From Escherichia phage vB_EcoA_4HA11, in sequence record MN445184: a DNA stretch of 64,000 nt. One strand, 5' to 3'. Numbering within the stretch: the stretch's first letter is position 1; every line of letters starts with the position of its first letter. A program made the position numbers and the translations under genes. The notes under the pieces are model-generated. The model had not been told where the DNA came from. It ran no database searches and saw nothing but the letters and a program-made list of their open reading frames with translations. Below are positions 4,393-61,819 of the stretch, piece after piece.

Positions 4393-4576
4393 AGTTCGAA
4401 GGCGAGACCAGGGAATACTCCCACAAGAACTTTCCTCCCCGTGAAGTTTATGACCAACAGTTCGTGAAATTGTTCTGTCGCTGTGGTGGGTGTGATTTCA
4501 CGGATGATGGTTACGCAATGCGTATACTGCTGCAATTGCTGTGGTAAATACGTAACAGTCTATAGGAGAACCGAAC

Positions 4577-5002
4577 ATGGCGAAGAAACCTGAAACCAAG
4601 AAAGTTGAAATTAAAACCGAAGCCCCAGTCGATGACATCCAGGCGAAGGAGGAAGGTGTGTTGCCTACCTACCTACAACGCGCCATCGATAACATCCCTC
4701 CAGGGGGAGACGGAGGCGTCGTCTACGCTGGCGGGTACGGTTGGGTGTGTGAATACCAAGACGGCACGAAGGAACTCCTCCAGGAGCTTCCAGGGCTGGC
4801 TGCGACCCTCAAGCGTTATGGTCGCGACAAGTTCGGCAAGCCGTTTGAAACCGGGGCTGTGATTGAAACCAACATCACAGTCGAGACTCTGAACCTGCTG
4901 GGTGAAGATGATCTCAAGTTGTTGGCTGCGCCGCTGGGTATCACAGAAGAAGATCGCATTCAGCTGATTGCGAAGCTGATCGAAAAATTGCAGATTAAAT
5001 AA
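4577..5002 (+). CDS. hypothetical protein
   Basis: 141-aa ORF with upstream TAGGAGAA RBS. Confidence 0.5.
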   Translation: MAKKPETKKVEIKTEAPVDDIQAKEEGVLPTYLQRAIDNIPPGGDGGVVYAGGYGWVCEYQDGTKELLQELPGLAATLKRYGRDKFGKPFETGAVIETNITVETLNLLGEDDLKLLAAPLGITEEDRIQLIAKLIEKLQIK

Positions 5003-5032: not shown

Positions 5033-5425
5033 ATGCCTATCGTTGACGAAAGCAACTTTATGTATTATGCACTGAGGCATTATATTGTAGATTCTGTCTC
5101 GTGGGATGAACTGCTGGTAGACATTCAGCGGATTTCGCTAATTAATCAATCATTGAAGAGATTTGTCCCTGGTAAGAGTCCTCGGTTGATTCTCAATCAA
5201 TTGATTACTGTCTTCAATACGTTCGAAACAGAGGCCGCTTGCCGTATGCTCGTTTTGAAGGTGGATAAGCCCCAGTTGCCACGCCTCAAGGCTGCTTTGT
5301 TGACATTAGGCGTATGGCGCGATGATTTATGTTCCGGTTCATACGAACCAGATAATGAGCTGATGATGGCTCTGAACAACGATTTGGATGAGTGGAGGAA
5401 ACCATGCCAACGATCACTGTATTAG
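5033..5425 (+). CDS. hypothetical protein
   Basis: 130-aa ORF in same-strand gene train. Confidence 0.45.
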   Translation: MPIVDESNFMYYALRHYIVDSVSWDELLVDIQRISLINQSLKRFVPGKSPRLILNQLITVFNTFETEAACRMLVLKVDKPQLPRLKAALLTLGVWRDDLCSGSYEPDNELMMALNNDLDEWRKPCQRSLY

Positions 5426-6216
5426 TAGCACCGGAAGTTGTTCGCAACAAACCGGAAACTGAGCGTCTTCACACTGTAACAGGTACTGCTCGGGGTTGGG
5501 AAAAGACCAGTCTTAACCAAGACCCAGACGAGATCCTGACTGAGTGTAAAGGTCTGGATGCACTGCTGACCAAGAGCAATTTGCAGGCCGATGGCGTCAC
5601 CAAAGTGGATCCAACCAAGCCCGTTGGCTTCCAGCTGTCTTATGAAATCCACGACCCAAGCGCTGTGCTGACCACTGGCCTGACCATCACCCCTGAAACT
5701 GCTAATGGTGAAGTCGGTCAGGTTGTTGAACTGAAGGCGGTCGTCGCTCCGGAGAACGCGACCTACCAGGGTGTCAACTGGTACTCTGGCGATCTGACCA
5801 AAGCTGTGCACATCGGTGGTGGTAAATTCAAGCTGCTGGCGCCGGGTTCAGTGACTGTTTACGGTGTAACCATCGAAGGTGACCACACTGACTCTACCGT
5901 CATCACAGTGGCTGGCGCTCTGTCTCTGTCTACCGATCTGGCTGCTTCTCAGGATGTAACAACAGGTGAATCCGCAACCTTCACCATCGCTGCTACAGGC
6001 GGCACTACCCCATACAAACACACTTGGTACTTCTCTGATGTCCCTGGTGGTGAAGAAGGTGAGGTGATCGATGCTGGCACTAACCCCACTGCTGCAACTG
6101 CGAGCCTGGTTATCACTGCAGTTGCTGCCGAAAACGAGGGTGAGTACTGGTGTGTTGTTGAAGACGCTGACGGCCACTCTGTGACCTCTACTCGTTGCGA
6201 AATGGCTGCGGTCTAA
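5404..6216 (+). CDS. Ig-like domain protein (BIG2-like plus Ig-like repeat); possible Hoc-like capsid decoration or adhesin
   Basis: internal ATG at 5404 preceded by GGAGGA; translation shows bacterial Ig-like patterns (GEVGQVVELKAVVAPENATYQGVNWYSGD.., ..ENEGEYWCVVEDADG..). Confidence 0.5.
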   Translation: MPTITVLVAPEVVRNKPETERLHTVTGTARGWEKTSLNQDPDEILTECKGLDALLTKSNLQADGVTKVDPTKPVGFQLSYEIHDPSAVLTTGLTITPETANGEVGQVVELKAVVAPENATYQGVNWYSGDLTKAVHIGGGKFKLLAPGSVTVYGVTIEGDHTDSTVITVAGALSLSTDLAASQDVTTGESATFTIAATGGTTPYKHTWYFSDVPGGEEGEVIDAGTNPTAATASLVITAVAAENEGEYWCVVEDADGHSVTSTRCEMAAV

Positions 6217-6218
6217 TC

Positions 6219-6449
6219 ATGAAGGGCTTCCAGGACTTCCTTGAAGACTCGGCAGCCCCTGGAACCACGACCGCCGATGTGGGGAAACCCGAAGGCGGTA
6301 TGGTGAAAGAGCCTGTCAAGAAGCCCAAGGATCTTGAGGAAGAACAAGAGCAGACCTCCTTCCAAAAGATCTTTGGAAACATCTTCAAAGACCTCGACCT
6401 GAAGAATGCAAGAAAGTGGAACTTCAGGACAGGCAAATATGAAGACTAA
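6219..6449 (+). CDS. small protein with T4 internal-protein-like capsid-targeting N-terminus (MKGFQDFLE)
   Basis: ATG at 6219 in frame of ORF 6195..6449; N-terminus MKGFQDFLEDSA resembles T4 IP capsid-targeting sequence MKTYQEFIAE; lysine/acidic-rich body. Confidence 0.45.
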   Translation: MKGFQDFLEDSAAPGTTTADVGKPEGGMVKEPVKKPKDLEEEQEQTSFQKIFGNIFKDLDLKNARKWNFRTGKYED

Positions 6450-6450
6450 A

Positions 6451-6471
6451 AGAGGCTCCGGCCTCTTTTTC
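6451..6471 (+). terminator. intrinsic terminator (AGAGGCTCCGGCCTCT + TTTTTC)
   Basis: perfect hairpin followed by T-run; near-identical core to hairpin at 4373. Confidence 0.75.
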
Positions 6472-6494
6472 ATTTCCAGCATTTGGTGTATAAT
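6466..6494 (+). promoter_or_regulatory. candidate sigma70-type promoter (TTTTCA-N16-TATAAT)
   Basis: TATAAT at about 6489-6494 with weak -35; about 45 nt upstream of ATG 6538. Confidence 0.3.
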
Positions 6495-13349: not shown

Positions 13350-13592
13350 ATGAGCCCAGAATTTGAAAACCTGTTCGAGCGATGCTTCGAACCAGGTTCT
13401 GTGTCCGGTTACATGGACCGCCTTTGCACTGCCATTGTAATACGCCTTGCTGCCAAGGGTATCGTTGTCAACACCATTATCCGCAATGGGAACAACTTTA
13501 TCATGCAGATGACTGATTATCACCGCCGCACAGGCATCATCCAGGTGTCATGTGTTGACAACAGCATTATTGAATGGAGACAGTACGCATGA
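13350..13592 (+). CDS. hypothetical protein
   Basis: 80-aa ORF. Confidence 0.4.
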   Translation: MSPEFENLFERCFEPGSVSGYMDRLCTAIVIRLAAKGIVVNTIIRNGNNFIMQMTDYHRRTGIIQVSCVDNSIIEWRQYA

Positions 13593-30839: not shown

Positions 30840-32192
30840 TTAACCGAAATTCCAATTATTCACGGTCTCGGCTTTCTTGACATCATTTACGTCGCCTGTT
30901 TTGTTTAAGTCATGTTTGATATGAACATTCTCAACATAACGGGCTTCCTCTTCTGTCAGGTCTCGCTTGACTTCATTCCAATCCAAGTCAAACAATATCT
31001 GTTTATCTTGATCCATACCGAACAAGAACGATTTGAGTTTCTGTTTATTGGCATAACGGTTTTTCAAGATAGACGCTCGGGCTTTCTTAACAGCCGCCAG
31101 TTCATCAGGGGCATAGAACGCCATGATGAAGTCTGCAACCTTCGGAATACCGATAGCATCTGCCAGGTCGCTAATATCACCATCAGTCGCCGATTGTTTT
31201 TCACGGTTAAATTGCATACCTGTCCATACAGGGCAATCAAATTCAAATCCAAGCGCACGGAATTCACGCGCCACCGACGTATAATACACGTTGGTGTTCT
31301 GCATTAAATGGGCAGGAAGGCGAGAAGACGCTGATTCACCCAAGTAGTCTATAATAATGACGTCCGGCGTAATTCCCGTGGATGTCGCGTAATCAAGGAT
31401 ATCGCGGCGATACAGTCCTGTATGCCCAGCGCCTGAAGGATATTCCTTGATAACAATATCACCCTTCATGGAACCGTCTTGACGGGTTCGCAACTTTTGT
31501 ATCGTAGCGACATATTCATGTCGTGAGAGCTTCTCTAAGGACTCGAAGTCCCTGCGCATCATACGGGCATCAAGGCGGTGACGCCAGACGTTCTCAGCCA
31601 CTTCTAGGGTAAATACGAATACGTTCAACCCTTGCTCGGAGTAACCAGCAGCCAAATCAATCAGAGTTGTTGTCTTACCCGCATTAATTGCACCCGTCAC
31701 GATGTTCAGCGTTTTCTTACCAACACCACCACGAGTCGCTTTGTTGAATATCTCTACAGCGAAAGGAATCTTCGCTTCATTAGAGTTCATGTGGTCGTAT
31801 TGTTGTTCAGCCATTTCCCAATAGATATGGCCAAGATAAGAATCAAAACTTATCGCCAACGCCTCTTGTAGGAGAGTTGGAATCGTGTTCATCTCATCTT
31901 TACGTTTCTCATCACCATAGATGTTGACGGCGTGTTTGATCGCATTATGAACAGCTTTCTGCCGCGCCCAACTTTCTGTTTCTTTTACAAGCCATTCCTG
32001 ATGGAATGTGTTGTCATTGATATTCTCAAGAGCAGAAATAGCTTGTTCAAATACGTGTTCGTTGAGCGAAGTCTTTTCCAGCATAATAGACAACGCTTCA
32101 ACCGAAGGACGAGCATTATATTCGCAAGTGTAATGGTCAATGAGACCGAATATAATTTTCTCGCCTTCGTTATCGAAATAATCGGCTTTCAA
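30840..32192 (-). CDS. DnaB-like replicative helicase gp41, main body (N-terminus displaced by tandem duplication)
   Basis: Walker A GAINAGKTT; ORF begins at a non-ATG codon inside the duplicated segment. Confidence 0.8.
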   Translation of the reverse strand: MKADYFDNEGEKIIFGLIDHYTCEYNARPSVEALSIMLEKTSLNEHVFEQAISALENINDNTFHQEWLVKETESWARQKAVHNAIKHAVNIYGDEKRKDEMNTIPTLLQEALAISFDSYLGHIYWEMAEQQYDHMNSNEAKIPFAVEIFNKATRGGVGKKTLNIVTGAINAGKTTTLIDLAAGYSEQGLNVFVFTLEVAENVWRHRLDARMMRRDFESLEKLSRHEYVATIQKLRTRQDGSMKGDIVIKEYPSGAGHTGLYRRDILDYATSTGITPDVIIIDYLGESASSRLPAHLMQNTNVYYTSVAREFRALGFEFDCPVWTGMQFNREKQSATDGDISDLADAIGIPKVADFIMAFYAPDELAAVKKARASILKNRYANKQKLKSFLFGMDQDKQILFDLDWNEVKRDLTEEEARYVENVHIKHDLNKTGDVNDVKKAETVNNWNFG

Positions 32193-32201
32193 ATACGGCT
32201 G
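31885..32201. repeat. 317-bp direct repeat, copy 1 (inside helicase gene)
   Basis: identical to 32202..32518 by inspection. Confidence 0.8.
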
Positions 32202-32587
32202 GTGTTCATCTCATCTTTACGTTTCTCATCACCATAGATGTTGACGGCGTGTTTGATCGCATTATGAACAGCTTTCTGCCGCGCCCAACTTTCTGTTTCT
32301 TTTACAAGCCATTCCTGATGGAATGTGTTGTCATTGATATTCTCAAGAGCAGAAATAGCTTGTTCAAATACGTGTTCGTTGAGCGAAGTCTTTTCCAGCA
32401 TAATAGACAACGCTTCAACCGAAGGACGAGCATTATATTCGCAAGTGTAATGGTCAATGAGACCGAATATAATTTTCTCGCCTTCGTTATCGAAATAATC
32501 GGCTTTCAAATACGGCTGGATCTTTCTTTGATATTCTTCGTTATAGATTAATTGGGAAAGCACGACAGATTCGAGTAACATTGGCAA
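32189..32587 (-). pseudogene. gp41 helicase N-terminal fragment (true start plus first copy of duplicated segment, ends 3 codons after junction)
   Basis: residues KADYFDN..KDEMNT identical to start of main ORF, then SRI-stop. Confidence 0.7.
32202..32518. repeat. 317-bp direct repeat, copy 2 (perfect tandem)
   Basis: identical to 31885..32201; period not a multiple of 3. Confidence 0.8.
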
Positions 32588-44096: not shown

Positions 44097-44133
44097 AACG
44101 AAGTTTCATTGTGTTATGGGTATTTAGACCGGA

Positions 44134-58155: not shown

Positions 58156-58509
58156 TTAGGACAATTGCTTCAGTTTGTAAATCGTTTGATAGCACAAAGT
58201 TTTGATTTCGTCAAGCGTGTTTTGTAAATGGCTATCACACTGATTGTAGATCCCATTAACGTCGATGACCACGCTGTTGATATACGATATCGGTTCAGGA
58301 TTGTATAATTTGATGTTCTCGAATCCTGGAATGTATATACCACCCGCACCAATATACGCTTCCGTAAAGGTGTCTAGCAAGTCCTCCAGTTCCCCGTAGA
58401 ACTCCCCGAGTGCCTTGTGCTTGGCATAGGACGTTGTAACGAAGTGGAGGGCATGAGAGTGGGCTATAGCAAGCAGTCCACGGTTGATGAATATACTCGC
58501 ATTGACCAT
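58156..58509 (-). CDS. hypothetical protein
   Basis: 117-aa ORF. Confidence 0.4.
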   Translation of the reverse strand: MVNASIFINRGLLAIAHSHALHFVTTSYAKHKALGEFYGELEDLLDTFTEAYIGAGGIYIPGFENIKLYNPEPISYINSVVIDVNGIYNQCDSHLQNTLDEIKTLCYQTIYKLKQLS

Positions 58510-58526
58510 GATATTTACCCCTAAAA

Positions 58527-58550
58527 AGAAAATCCCCCTGTATTTAGGGG
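58527..58550 (-). terminator. intrinsic terminator after internal-protein-like operon (ATCCCCC-loop-GGGGGAT + U-rich)
   Basis: hairpin just below stop at 58559. Confidence 0.5.
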
Positions 58551-58558
58551 GATTGTAA

Positions 58559-58801
58559 TCACGGCTTGACCAGAGTCATCTTGACGGTTTCACCCGTGTC
58601 GGTGTCTGTCAGGGTCATGATGTCTTGCGCGTTCACGGACTTCACTTTCCCCTGCCGCTTATCACCGTTGCGATTGTAGTAATCGATCAGCTCGCCTTTG
58701 GTTGGACGACCAACATCCGTGATGTCGTACATGCCCTGCTGCCCAAGGCGGCGATGGTCAACCTTTGCTTCCTTCAAGAGGAAGTCCTGGAATCCTTTCA
58801 T
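58559..58801 (-). CDS. internal-protein-like small protein with capsid-targeting-like N-terminus (MKGFQDFLLKE/A)
   Basis: 80 aa; N-terminus resembles T4 IP targeting sequence with L-x-E cleavage context; basic body. Confidence 0.5.
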   Translation of the reverse strand: MKGFQDFLLKEAKVDHRRLGQQGMYDITDVGRPTKGELIDYYNRNGDKRQGKVKSVNAQDIMTLTDTDTGETVKMTLVKP

Positions 58802-58810
58802 ACAACCTCC

Positions 58811-59380
58811 TTAGACAGGTTTAACGCCAATATATTTGGCAATGTCCGCAGCTAGGGTTTTCCCCTTACTGATGTCATGCTGTTTGCCAGCGACTGTGAC
58901 AATTACATATGGATCGTCTTCTCCGCCGAAGTCGATTGCGACAGGTTTTCCAATACCAGGAATACCGGAATATTCAAACTCTGTACGACCGCTTTTACGA
59001 GATTTGCCAACGCCCAGCGCTTTACCGATCATCTTATCCATGTTCGCCAATTCTTGGGCATAGGATTCTGTGACCTGACCTTTGCTGGCATCTTTCCCAA
59101 AGAAGAACTCAAAACCGTCATGAACGGCAACAACATCTTTGCCCACAGAAACCGCATGAACCTGGTCCGGTGTGAGTTTTACTTTGGTGGTGTTGCCGTT
59201 AGTCAATTCCAGATTATAGATGTCGGCCTGATTATCTGGAGTGATCTGGGTCACGGTGGCACCAGTACACCATTGGGTTCCGTCGGCCTGTTTGGTGATG
59301 GTTACACCTTTGCCTTGTATGCCGCCATGAGTTTGCGGTTGTTGAGCTTGTTCTTTAAAATATTCGATAAACGGTTTCAT
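58811..59380 (-). CDS. internal-protein-like protein with capsid-targeting-like N-terminus (MKPFIEYFKE/Q)
   Basis: 189 aa; same operon. Confidence 0.45.
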   Translation of the reverse strand: MKPFIEYFKEQAQQPQTHGGIQGKGVTITKQADGTQWCTGATVTQITPDNQADIYNLELTNGNTTKVKLTPDQVHAVSVGKDVVAVHDGFEFFFGKDASKGQVTESYAQELANMDKMIGKALGVGKSRKSGRTEFEYSGIPGIGKPVAIDFGGEDDPYVIVTVAGKQHDISKGKTLAADIAKYIGVKPV

Positions 59381-59431
59381 CGTGGATCTCCTAAGGATTT
59401 TGATGTATTTAGCCCCCGAAGGGGCTATGAC

Positions 59432-61819
59432 TTATTTCAGACTAATCTGAAGATTACCACCCAGTGATTGTTCATATTCACTGTATGCACTATCACCATT
59501 ACTCATAGCCCATTCGTCGGATTGGCGAGCGCGTTCAAGAGTCATGAGATTTGGCTCGGTAGGATTATAGCCTTTAGATTTCGCGTCGTTGTATACCGTT
59601 TGCAGGTATTGGTTGGCACGGTTGATCTGATCCTTGAATTCACGATATGCTCCTTCGGTCGTATTGCGACGGAAAGTGATATCCCAAGCAACATTCAGAA
59701 CTGTACCATTACTGGCTGTGTATACCTGCCAATCCAGATCTCGTCCATTAGGAGCGCTGTCACGAATGGATTCGGCATAGGTGGCCAGATCACCTGCATT
59801 CTTACCTCCAGCAGCCTGATCTTTAGCCCGAGCCAAAGCATCAATGACTGCCGTGCGGTTCCTGGACTGTGCCAAATCTTTGTCTTGGAACATAATCGCG
59901 CCAAATTTACTGACAGTGATGTCATTCAGGAACAGATTGTTAGGGTTATAGTTTGATGAACTGAGATGGCTCAGTTGCGAAGCCGCGTCTTTCAGGCGTC
60001 GAGAAATCTCATCCAATGCATCTTGCACTGATTTGACAGACAACGAAATATCATATCCATTGCTGTCTACCACATTTCGACCATTTTCAGTCAACATGGT
60101 GGTGATGTTGGCTTTATTTCGATCAAAATCGTAAGTTACGTTGGTAACGAATCTTGCGGCTTGCAACTTGCTACCAGCAGGGAACTGGAAATCCCACGCT
60201 ACAGAGAAGCCATGAACGGTTTCACCAAAAAATTTAGCGTTGCTTGGTACTTTGATGTTTGCAGTGATCACTGCATTTTCACTGGAATTGGTGTTGATTT
60301 CACCAAAGATAGTACGCTCGTCGGAAGATTGAACCAACAGAGTATCTTTTCCACGCCAATCATAGCGGACTTTGAATGTTGTACGAGGAAACTCTTTCAT
60401 CAGATCAAGTTTGACCGCCTTGCCCAAGGTAAACCGATTCAGCAGAGCGTCAGCGATCTTCAATGTGAAAGAACCACAATCAACGTAAGAATATCCCTGA
60501 GAACGGGAAATTTTTTGAATCGGATATGGGGCACCATTGATAGGAACCACACGGCATTCTACTTCTCCCGCAAATTGAGAATCGGCTGCACGGGAGATTG
60601 CGCCCACTATTTCATAAGCGGCGTTTTTCACGTCTCCTTCCAGCATAAGTTGGTAATGACCAGACAAATCTGATACTACTTCTACAGAAAGTTTTCCGTT
60701 GACAATTCCCCAGAAATAAACCTGAATGTCCAGACCACCCGAAGTACGATATTTGCCCGCGCCGATTCGTGTTAGTTTTTCACCTGCATACATACCGACC
60801 TGTTGTGGAGCATATGTGTCTACAATCCCCAGAAGGCGAGCAATATAACCCTGATTTCGTAAGTCATCCACAGATCCTGTTTTTGGCAAAGTCTGCATGT
60901 CTATTTTTCCAGAATCTCCCGTCATCTCTTTCCAGAAGATGGACGACTGCTTGGTGAAATCATTCAGAATATTCACAGGGATCTGCGGTAATCCCAGTTG
61001 GCGTACAATAGCGTCTGGGGATTGAGCGCGGATCCGTTTCTCGTTCATGATACTACCAGCATACACACCAGGTTCATTCGCGTGAGGTGCGATATTGGCG
61101 GTAATAGTCCGCCCACGTTCTTTACCAGACCAGACCAGCATAGGCTGAGTATGATCAGCCTTGGTCAGAATCCAGCGAGAATCGGCATTTATGGCTTGGC
61201 TCAAATCATCCATGTCACCTTGTAGTGCGGCGTCACGAGCAGCCTGGTCAGGAACGTCGCCGACTTTGTCTGGGTCGTCCCAAGTCACGCCTTTCATTTT
61301 CGGACCATCGAATACCTGAGCAGGATCCTTACCTTTACGCACAACCCATACGAATGCACGATCAGGGATAGGGGTATACGTCAGGTCCATGACATTGAGC
61401 TTCTGCTTCAGGCCGGACTGACGGATGATCTTCGGCAGGAGGGTAACACCACGTTCCAATGCTTTCTTGGAGAAGTTAATTGCAAAGCCGTCAATGGTTT
61501 TCCCCAAAGGCGTCGCCATGAATTGCTTTGTTGCTTCGATCATGGATGCGATGACACGCATTGGGTTTTTGAAACGACCGATTGCGTCTGGATAGGTCGA
61601 ACCACGTTTCTGGCCTATGAAGACCTGACGAACGTTCTTGCCCAGCCCCTGCGGGGTATAAAATTGGATGCGGAATTCTTTTTCGTCTTCATCAACAAAT
61701 GTGAAGAAAATGTCACCAGCGTTCTTCTTACCGAATGTCAATTCATACGGGGATGAGTTAAACGCTTCGTCTAATTGTTTAGACTCTTCAAGAAAGTTCA
61801 AGAAAGATGGGATGGCCAT
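59432..61819 (-). CDS. large protein leading the internal-protein-like operon; possible packaged/injected protein
   Basis: 795 aa; N-terminus MAIPSFLNFLEE/S has a possible L-x-E site; no enzymatic motif recognised. Confidence 0.4.
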   Translation of the reverse strand: MAIPSFLNFLEESKQLDEAFNSSPYELTFGKKNAGDIFFTFVDEDEKEFRIQFYTPQGLGKNVRQVFIGQKRGSTYPDAIGRFKNPMRVIASMIEATKQFMATPLGKTIDGFAINFSKKALERGVTLLPKIIRQSGLKQKLNVMDLTYTPIPDRAFVWVVRKGKDPAQVFDGPKMKGVTWDDPDKVGDVPDQAARDAALQGDMDDLSQAINADSRWILTKADHTQPMLVWSGKERGRTITANIAPHANEPGVYAGSIMNEKRIRAQSPDAIVRQLGLPQIPVNILNDFTKQSSIFWKEMTGDSGKIDMQTLPKTGSVDDLRNQGYIARLLGIVDTYAPQQVGMYAGEKLTRIGAGKYRTSGGLDIQVYFWGIVNGKLSVEVVSDLSGHYQLMLEGDVKNAAYEIVGAISRAADSQFAGEVECRVVPINGAPYPIQKISRSQGYSYVDCGSFTLKIADALLNRFTLGKAVKLDLMKEFPRTTFKVRYDWRGKDTLLVQSSDERTIFGEINTNSSENAVITANIKVPSNAKFFGETVHGFSVAWDFQFPAGSKLQAARFVTNVTYDFDRNKANITTMLTENGRNVVDSNGYDISLSVKSVQDALDEISRRLKDAASQLSHLSSSNYNPNNLFLNDITVSKFGAIMFQDKDLAQSRNRTAVIDALARAKDQAAGGKNAGDLATYAESIRDSAPNGRDLDWQVYTASNGTVLNVAWDITFRRNTTEGAYREFKDQINRANQYLQTVYNDAKSKGYNPTEPNLMTLERARQSDEWAMSNGDSAYSEYEQSLGGNLQISLK

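Follow-up and report, generated by a model that had tools for sequence, protein, structure and literature searches.

A predicted capsid-targeting leader of the T4 type on a small conserved protein encoded beside a Hoc-like gene in an Ackermannviridae phage

The internal proteins (IPs) of phage T4 are basic, and the mature form of one of them, IPI*, has 76 residues; T4 gp67 and gp68 are prohead core proteins, most of which leaves the head after cleavage. Biocontrol and phage engineering make wide use of phages of the family Ackermannviridae (e.g., CBA120, Det7, ViI, and LIMEstone), and about half of the genes in these phages are without known function. In T4, residues 1–10 of IPIII are enough for packaging, and the capsid-targeting sequence (CTS) can be further divided into residues 4 and 7, which carry targeting, and residues 8 and 10, which carry processing; the protease gp21 cuts after L/I-x-E, and an Asp at position 10 prevents processing while leaving targeting intact (PMC9026906). 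Giant phages (SPN3US and phiKZ-like phages) process their head proteins with a prohead protease related to that of T4 (PMC5694885, PMC7411985). A search for capsid targeting together with Ackermannviridae or its genera returned no paper; as far as the searchable literature shows, a T4-type targeting system is so far undescribed in this family.

The window analyzed here, a stretch of 64,000 nucleotides from Escherichia phage vB_EcoA_4HA11 (MN445184), derives from an Ackermannviridae (ViI-like) phage. Over 5–8 kb, it shares 98.5% identity with Escherichia phages PC3, PH4, and vB_EcoM-ZQ1 and 98.3% with A221; over 58–62 kb, it shares 98.7% with Kuttervirus EP75. The gene for the 76-aa protein considered below is 100% identical to that of one IMG/VR contig, where identity falls to 85% for the 189-aa gene, and the 189-aa gene of the window is 99% identical to that of EP75, whose 76-aa gene is 82% identical; these opposite patterns point to a mosaic ancestry, in which the two ends of the window have different closest relatives.

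The 76-aa protein gene (phrog_4805; positions 6219–6449, + strand) starts with ATG and has no database assignment of function; the ORF begins MKGFQDFLEDSA, and its longer N-terminal stretch reads MKGFQDFLEDSAAPGTTTADVGKPEGGMVKEPVKKPKDLEEE. The sequence-only reading had described an ORF at this position that shares its eight N-terminal residues with the gene starting at 58801, continues into an unrelated Lys/Glu-rich body, and is followed by a strong intrinsic terminator, with the ATG at 6219 chosen over an in-frame TTG at 6195, and it proved accurate in every particular. The eight residues are the same in the 76-aa protein and in the 80-aa protein of the 58801 gene, as read from both ORFs; of the 76 residues of the protein, 11 are Lys, 8 Glu, and 7 Asp; and BLASTP against the 80-aa protein finds no real similarity past the leader. 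The protein is acidic, with a pI of 5.16 at full length and 5.44 after E9. As for the start codon, the TTG is present in the window and missing in 16 of 19 related loci (IMG/VR), in which an in-frame stop lies 6–36 nt upstream of the ATG (for 15 of these loci, at 6–21 nt); all 19 loci have the ATG, which is also annotated as the start in five GenBank records of relatives. The absence of the TTG from so many related loci thus identifies the ATG at 6219 as the real start. No Shine-Dalgarno sequence was seen by eye upstream of this ATG, which lies 2–3 nt past the stop of the preceding Ig-domain gene (TAA-TC-ATG in the window), and in distant relatives the two codons overlap as ATGA; because the start abuts or overlaps the Ig stop in this way and no Shine-Dalgarno sequence was seen, translation of the 76-aa gene is most likely coupled to that of the Ig gene. 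The terminator that closes the block (6448–6475, +) consists of a 9-bp stem (6448–6456/6461–6469), a 4-nt loop, and a U run, with a dG of −13.6 kcal/mol and z = −4.06, and none of 200 shuffled sequences folded as well. A sigma-70-like promoter for the next gene follows at 6467–6494.

The block closed by this terminator begins with a predicted late-promoter-like motif, GTAAATAC (4544–4551, +), 26 nt before the ATG at 4577, and proceeds through genes for proteins of 141 and 130 aa to the Hoc-like Ig gene and then the 76-aa gene. A "putative late promoter" is annotated at the matching position in the LIMEstone1 record, and the motif CTAAATAcCcc has been reported for EspM4VN (PMC7283392). The first gene (4577–5002, +) encodes a 141-aa conserved protein with a full-length match to phrog_3795, and a DUF7440 gene occupies its position in distant relatives; the second (5033–5425, +) encodes a 130-aa conserved protein, with a DUF7207 gene in its place in distant relatives. 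The third (5392–6216, +) encodes a Hoc-like Ig-domain virion protein with Pfam and PHROG matches (Big_2 plus Ig_3/I-set), the orthologs of which have been detected in virions as LIMEstone1 ORF6, Sajous1 gp83 (43 spectra), and AG3 ORF006. Three distant relatives show the same order of DUF7207 gene, Big_2 Ig protein, and 76-aa homolog, and in two longer contigs of those relatives, rIIB and a DUF7440 gene precede this block. The best reading is that the 76-aa gene is a real, conserved late gene and the last of its block, its late timing being suggested by the predicted promoter.

Two further observations concern the block and its promoter. The N-terminus of the Hoc-like Ig protein matches phrog_3795 weakly, with DUF7440 below the Pfam cutoff, and a phrog_3795/DUF7440-like stretch may be a capsid-binding module common to the 141-aa and Ig proteins. 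In addition to GTAAATAC at 4544–4551 (+), the exact sequence CTAAATAC occurs at 59405–59412 (−), 58540–58547 (−), and 44120–44127 (−); late-promoter-like motifs lie 25–31 nt upstream of the 189-aa gene, a 117-aa gene, and the 4577 block, and putative late promoters are annotated in LIMEstone1 at the equivalent positions.

The 76-aa protein matches the phrog_4805 profile at E = 2.6e-47 over residues 1–76, and its homologs are found in 279 phage records, from phages of Salmonella, Klebsiella, Escherichia, Dickeya, Serratia, Shigella, Enterobacter, and other hosts. In a 22-member alignment, E9, D10, S11, and T16–M28 (TTTADVGKPEGGM) except A19 are invariant, and M1, K2, F4, L8, A19, and V29 are nearly so; the conserved core, TTTADVGKPEGGMV, covers residues 16–29 (6264–6305, +), and distant relatives retain it as AP-x-(T/S)...VGKP-x-GG. 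When 1.8 billion representatives were searched exhaustively with a profile, only 12 proteins emerged, all of them short (46–87 aa) save one of 1432 aa with a weak partial match; these relatives have in common the leader and the AP...VGKPxGG motif, with divergent C-termini. The motif [AT]DVG[KR]P, at 6273–6290 and 58703–58720 (−), occurs in both the 76-aa and 80-aa proteins as a possible second common motif and was rejected as a sign of homology, as it is not conserved in the 80-aa family; it sits at different offsets in the two proteins and is probably due to chance.

The leader MKGFQDFLED occupies codons 1–10 of the 76-aa gene (6219–6248, +), is of the T4 CTS type, and is predicted to be helical at residues 4–9; AlphaFold places a helix at these residues and disorder elsewhere, at low confidence (pLDDT 61, pTM 0.21). 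Among 2146 candidate ORF starts compared pairwise, its eight residues form the longest N-terminus common to unrelated loci, the next best being six; longer shared N-termini arise only from a 300-nt tandem duplication at 31.9–32.5 kb. This duplication (31885–32501) is perfect, with 100% identity and a 317-nt spacing, repeats the first 103 codons of the gene at 30840–32192 (−), and may be of recent origin or else an artefact of assembly. Within the eight shared codons, the 76-aa and 80-aa genes differ at three synonymous third positions. Across about 20 genomes, the N-termini read MK[SGT]F[QK]D[FY]LED for the 76-aa gene, MK[GNS]F.D[FY]L(L)[KT]E for the 80-aa gene, MK[PTSK]F.[EQD][YF][FL].E for a 189-aa gene, and M..[PQL].FL.F[LMI].E for a 795-aa gene. 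Across genera, codon 4 of the 76-aa gene is fixed, codons 6, 7, 8, 9, and 10 show synonymous variation (or an F-to-Y change, at 7), and other amino-acid changes occur only at positions 3 and 5. Synonymous changes at constant residues argue for selection on the leader at the protein level, as opposed to recent gene conversion or a nucleotide signal. A regular expression for the leader, written after the sequences had been seen, matched only the four flagged genes among the 2146 candidate starts of the window, and the same expression applied to the rebuilt 157-kb genome of Salmonella phage Sajous1 returned only the four orthologs, gp116, and one internal ATG. At least five genes in each genome accordingly carry the leader, each on a body unrelated to the others. 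Pfam and PDB searches with the 76-, 80-, 189-, and 795-aa proteins gave nothing. An 80-aa ORF at 13350–13592 (+) starts with MSPEFENLFER, which is loosely leader-like, in a region that looks non-structural.

The T4 leaders, as read from NC_000866, are MKTFKEF for ipI and MKTYQEFIAE for ipII and ipIII, and the 76-aa leader has the same form, M-K-x-[YF]-x-[ED]-F-[IL]. A log-odds matrix derived from Ackermannviridae leaders only (positions 2–8) was scored on 66 kb of T4 and ranked ipI, ipIII, and ipII 2nd, 3rd, and 4th of 1221 candidate starts; rank 1 fell on an internal ATG in nrdB, and the T4 IPs were the best true gene starts. The resemblance to the T4 IP targeting consensus that had been suspected is thereby borne out as one and the same motif, and the 76-aa leader, judged by its sequence, genuinely belongs to the T4 CTS class. 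The T4 targeting residues are kept, with F4 and F/Y7 invariant or conservatively varied across the 22 family members and the distant relatives, and L8 is kept in the 76-aa leader. The gp21 site, L/I-x-E with Glu10, is lacking: the leader reads L8-E9-D10, with both E9 and D10 invariant, and the leaders of distant relatives end in FLESE, FLEETE, FLNESE, or YVESD. Under the T4 rule, the invariant Asp10 suggests that the 76-aa protein would be targeted and left uncut at the canonical place. The sibling leaders, unlike the 76-aa leader, have [LFY]-x-E, and the F-K-E and Y-R-E among them suggest that an aromatic residue at P3 may suit the protease; F-D-E of T4 Alt was dropped as a precedent, because the T4 review gives a 7-residue Alt propeptide. 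Three options may therefore be envisaged for the 76-aa protein, namely cleavage after E9 (F-L-E), cleavage at the conserved L38-E39-E40, or no cleavage. No clear protease cleavage site could be derived from the N-terminus of the major capsid protein. The protease itself is found outside the window in a close relative, where Sajous1 gp155 matches Peptidase_S77 (the T4 gp21-type prohead protease) at 1.3e-27, and a Peptidase_S77 protease is also listed for the family elsewhere (PMC3220722). The scaffold of the same relative, gp156, likewise outside the window, starts with MKPELQNLFE.

The three siblings in the window lie together on the opposite strand: the 80-aa gene (58559–58801, −), with the start MKGFQDFLLKEA and the leader MKGFQDFLLKE (L-K-E site); the 189-aa gene (58811–59380, −), with the leader MKPFIEYFKE and the exact CTAAATAC upstream at 59405–59412 (−); and the 795-aa gene (59432–61819, −), with a leader shifted by two residues, MAIPSFLNFLEE (L-E-E site). 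In CsCl-purified Sajous1 virions examined by LC-MS/MS (PMC10892097, Table 6), their counterparts gp214 (795-aa protein), gp215 (189-aa protein), and gp216 (79 aa; 80-aa protein) gave 196, 32, and 20 spectra, respectively, and gp116, which lies outside the window, gave 10. The last-named protein, an ART-PolyVal ADP-ribosyltransferase (Pfam 9e-11) with the leader MKTFLEFYRE (Sajous1 MW021757, 71641–72090, −), is likely, by analogy, a packaged and injected enzyme comparable to T4 Alt. LIMEstone1 ORF080, the 189-aa homolog, is a confirmed structural protein. At LIMEstone1 HE600015 59415–61011, two ORFs, ORF081 (375 aa, GTG start) and ORF082 (163 aa, carrying the leader MSKPSFLQFMQE), stand in place of the 795-aa gene as a shorter, split counterpart, and both are confirmed structural proteins. 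The 795-aa ortholog has been published as a "tail completion protein", and the operon as a tail "ferrojan horse" iron module (PMC10892097). Against this tail reading, the operon at 58156–61819 (−) looks like head-internal cargo, since CTS-type leaders stand on three of its four genes. The 117-aa DUF5856/Dps-like protein of the operon (58156–58509) is without the leader and was nonetheless found in virions.

For the 76-aa protein itself, the evidence from virions is of a different kind. In Sajous1, the whole-virion LC-MS/MS list, although it reaches down to proteins with one spectrum, does not include its ortholog gp82, and its ortholog ORF7 is absent from the gel-based LIMEstone1 virion list, in which the 80-aa sibling ORF079 was missed too. 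The LIMEstone1 result is weak, since that study also overlooked the sibling; more weight falls on the Sajous1 result, given the detection of the 79-aa sibling there and the fact that gp82 would give ordinary detectable tryptic peptides, such as DSSAPATTTADVGKPEGGMVQEPVK, DLEEESGFK, and IFGNIFK. The proteomes of phiD3 (10 proteins identified), AG3 (6 bands), and EspM4VN (18) relied on excised gel bands only and are uninformative for a protein of 7–8 kDa, and the ViI GenBank record holds no proteomic notes. The sequence-only reading had taken the shared leader as the signature of a modular family of packaged proteins: this is well supported for the family, given the leader on unrelated bodies and the siblings in virions, and only in part for the 76-aa member, which is missing from the Sajous1 and LIMEstone1 lists. 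The claim that the 76-aa protein is itself packaged in the virion is thus unsupported, as the ortholog appears in neither published list; its Asp10 also departs from the processing rule.

Taken together, these results favor, with a probability of roughly 0.55, a late, translationally coupled, mostly disordered protein that is targeted to the prohead core and is probably not abundant in the virion. Residues 1 to 9–10 of the leader would fold into a short amphipathic helix, one face of which carries F4, F7, and L8, and through this leader the protein would dock onto the scaffolding core during prohead assembly. The Peptidase_S77 prohead protease would then act after E9 (F-L-E) or at L38-E39-E40, or would make no cut, and the mature product may be degraded and expelled in the manner of core proteins or retained in low copy number. 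Its absence from both proteomes and its non-canonical processing site suggest that finished virions, although they contain the three siblings at 58.5–61.8 kb, probably hold little of the mature 76-aa product.

Alternatively, the 76-aa protein could be a true internal head protein like T4 IPI, which is targeted, trimmed, kept with the DNA, and injected, and which the proteomes simply missed. The leader of the Klebsiella- and Serratia-phage forms, MKTFKDF, almost equals MKTFKEF of T4 IPI, and pairwise BLASTP of the Klebsiella-phage form against IPI gives E = 9e-05 over 46 residues, mostly leader; T4 IPI is also without L/I-x-E at residues 8–10 and has I-T-E at 17–19, and it is of similar size (95 aa against 76 aa). 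Small proteins are, in addition, easily lost, as the 80-aa sibling detected in Sajous1 and missed in LIMEstone1 illustrates. This reading is nevertheless rather unlikely, because the protein is acidic and not basic, and the Sajous1 LC-MS/MS, which saw one-spectrum proteins, does not list it; coupled translation with no Shine-Dalgarno sequence seen by eye also suggests modest expression. The undetected protein in Sajous1 and LIMEstone1 virions would also suit a leader that serves as an interaction helix for a use other than entry into the head, such as docking to the co-translated Hoc-like Ig protein or to another late assembly factor, in which case the protein would have a role outside the capsid or serve as a chaperone of assembly; strict conservation of the coupling with the Ig gene, the ATGA overlap in distant relatives included, is in line with this. 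Such a use is improbable, since proteins with no tie to the Ig gene bear the same leader, which agrees with the T4 CTS as defined by experiment.

The invariance of E9 and D10 invites another thought, namely that the protein acts on the prohead protease as a decoy or a regulator, loosely like T4 Inh. It would be core-targeted and uncleavable at the canonical site and would occupy the protease or time its action. In T4, Asp10 permits targeting and blocks processing, and inh adjoins hoc just as the 76-aa gene adjoins the Hoc-like gene; the argument is purely analogical, however, and F-L-E after E9 may be a good site, considering F-K-E and Y-R-E in the siblings, which makes a decoy quite improbable. 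Very improbable, and already disfavored, is a shared N-terminus without a function of its own, left by duplication or gene conversion or acting as a nucleotide-level element of translation initiation: 14 consecutive nt (TTCCAGGACTTCCT) are indeed identical between the 76-aa and 80-aa genes, but across genera both leaders diverge independently and stay within the motif, and the motif is common with T4 at the protein level only. At long odds, finally, the preferred core-targeted protein could be a deliberately uncleavable or differently cleaved CTS protein that reaches the core in step with the Hoc-like protein and in which E9-D10 and VGKPxGG modulate or time the protease or mark a sub-site of the core, within a wider T4-like packaging system. 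If this were true, the Ackermannviridae would possess a complete, T4-like, so far undescribed packaging system, including an injected ADP-ribosyltransferase, and a ten-residue tag could load cargo into Kuttervirus or Agtrevirus heads.

With a T4-type tag recognized, at least five hypothetical proteins in each genome acquire a location and a route of assembly that can be tested, and a ten-residue tag could serve to package foreign proteins, for which T4 sets the precedent. The 76-aa gene, with its Asp10 and its absence from the proteomes, offers a natural test case for separating the part of the tag that targets from the part that decides on retention.

Among the known systems, the giant-phage ejection proteins follow another cleavage logic, with large propeptides. 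T4 Alt is matched in that Sajous1 gp116 is a leader-bearing ADP-ribosyltransferase found in virions; gp116 differs from Alt in its size (149 aa against 682 aa) and its ART family, and its gene lies outside the window. The core proteins gp67 and gp68 resemble the 76-aa protein in their small size and in a possible core targeting followed by degradation, with one conserved internal L-E-E site in the 76-aa protein, and such a fate would account for the absence of the 76-aa protein from virions. They differ in that the 76-aa gene lies outside the portal-protease-scaffold cluster, where Sajous1 has gp153 and gp154; on the Sajous1 map, gp82 is located near 50 kb, by rIIB and the Hoc-like gene, and gp155 near 111 kb, about 60 kb apart. 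No sequence similarity between gp67 or gp68 and the 76-aa protein was found, Pfam having given nothing. From the T4 IPs, the 76-aa protein departs in having Asp10 instead of Glu in its leader, in being acidic instead of basic, in being unseen in the two virion proteomes checked, in having a body without convincing homology to any T4 IP, and in being encoded by a gene coupled to a Hoc-like gene and not in an IP locus. At the same time, the T4 IPs share with it an M-K-x-[FY]-x-[DE]-F-[LI] leader on unrelated small bodies (MKTFKDFLED in the Klebsiella-phage orthologs), a gp21-family protease in the phage, and several dispersed genes that carry the leader.
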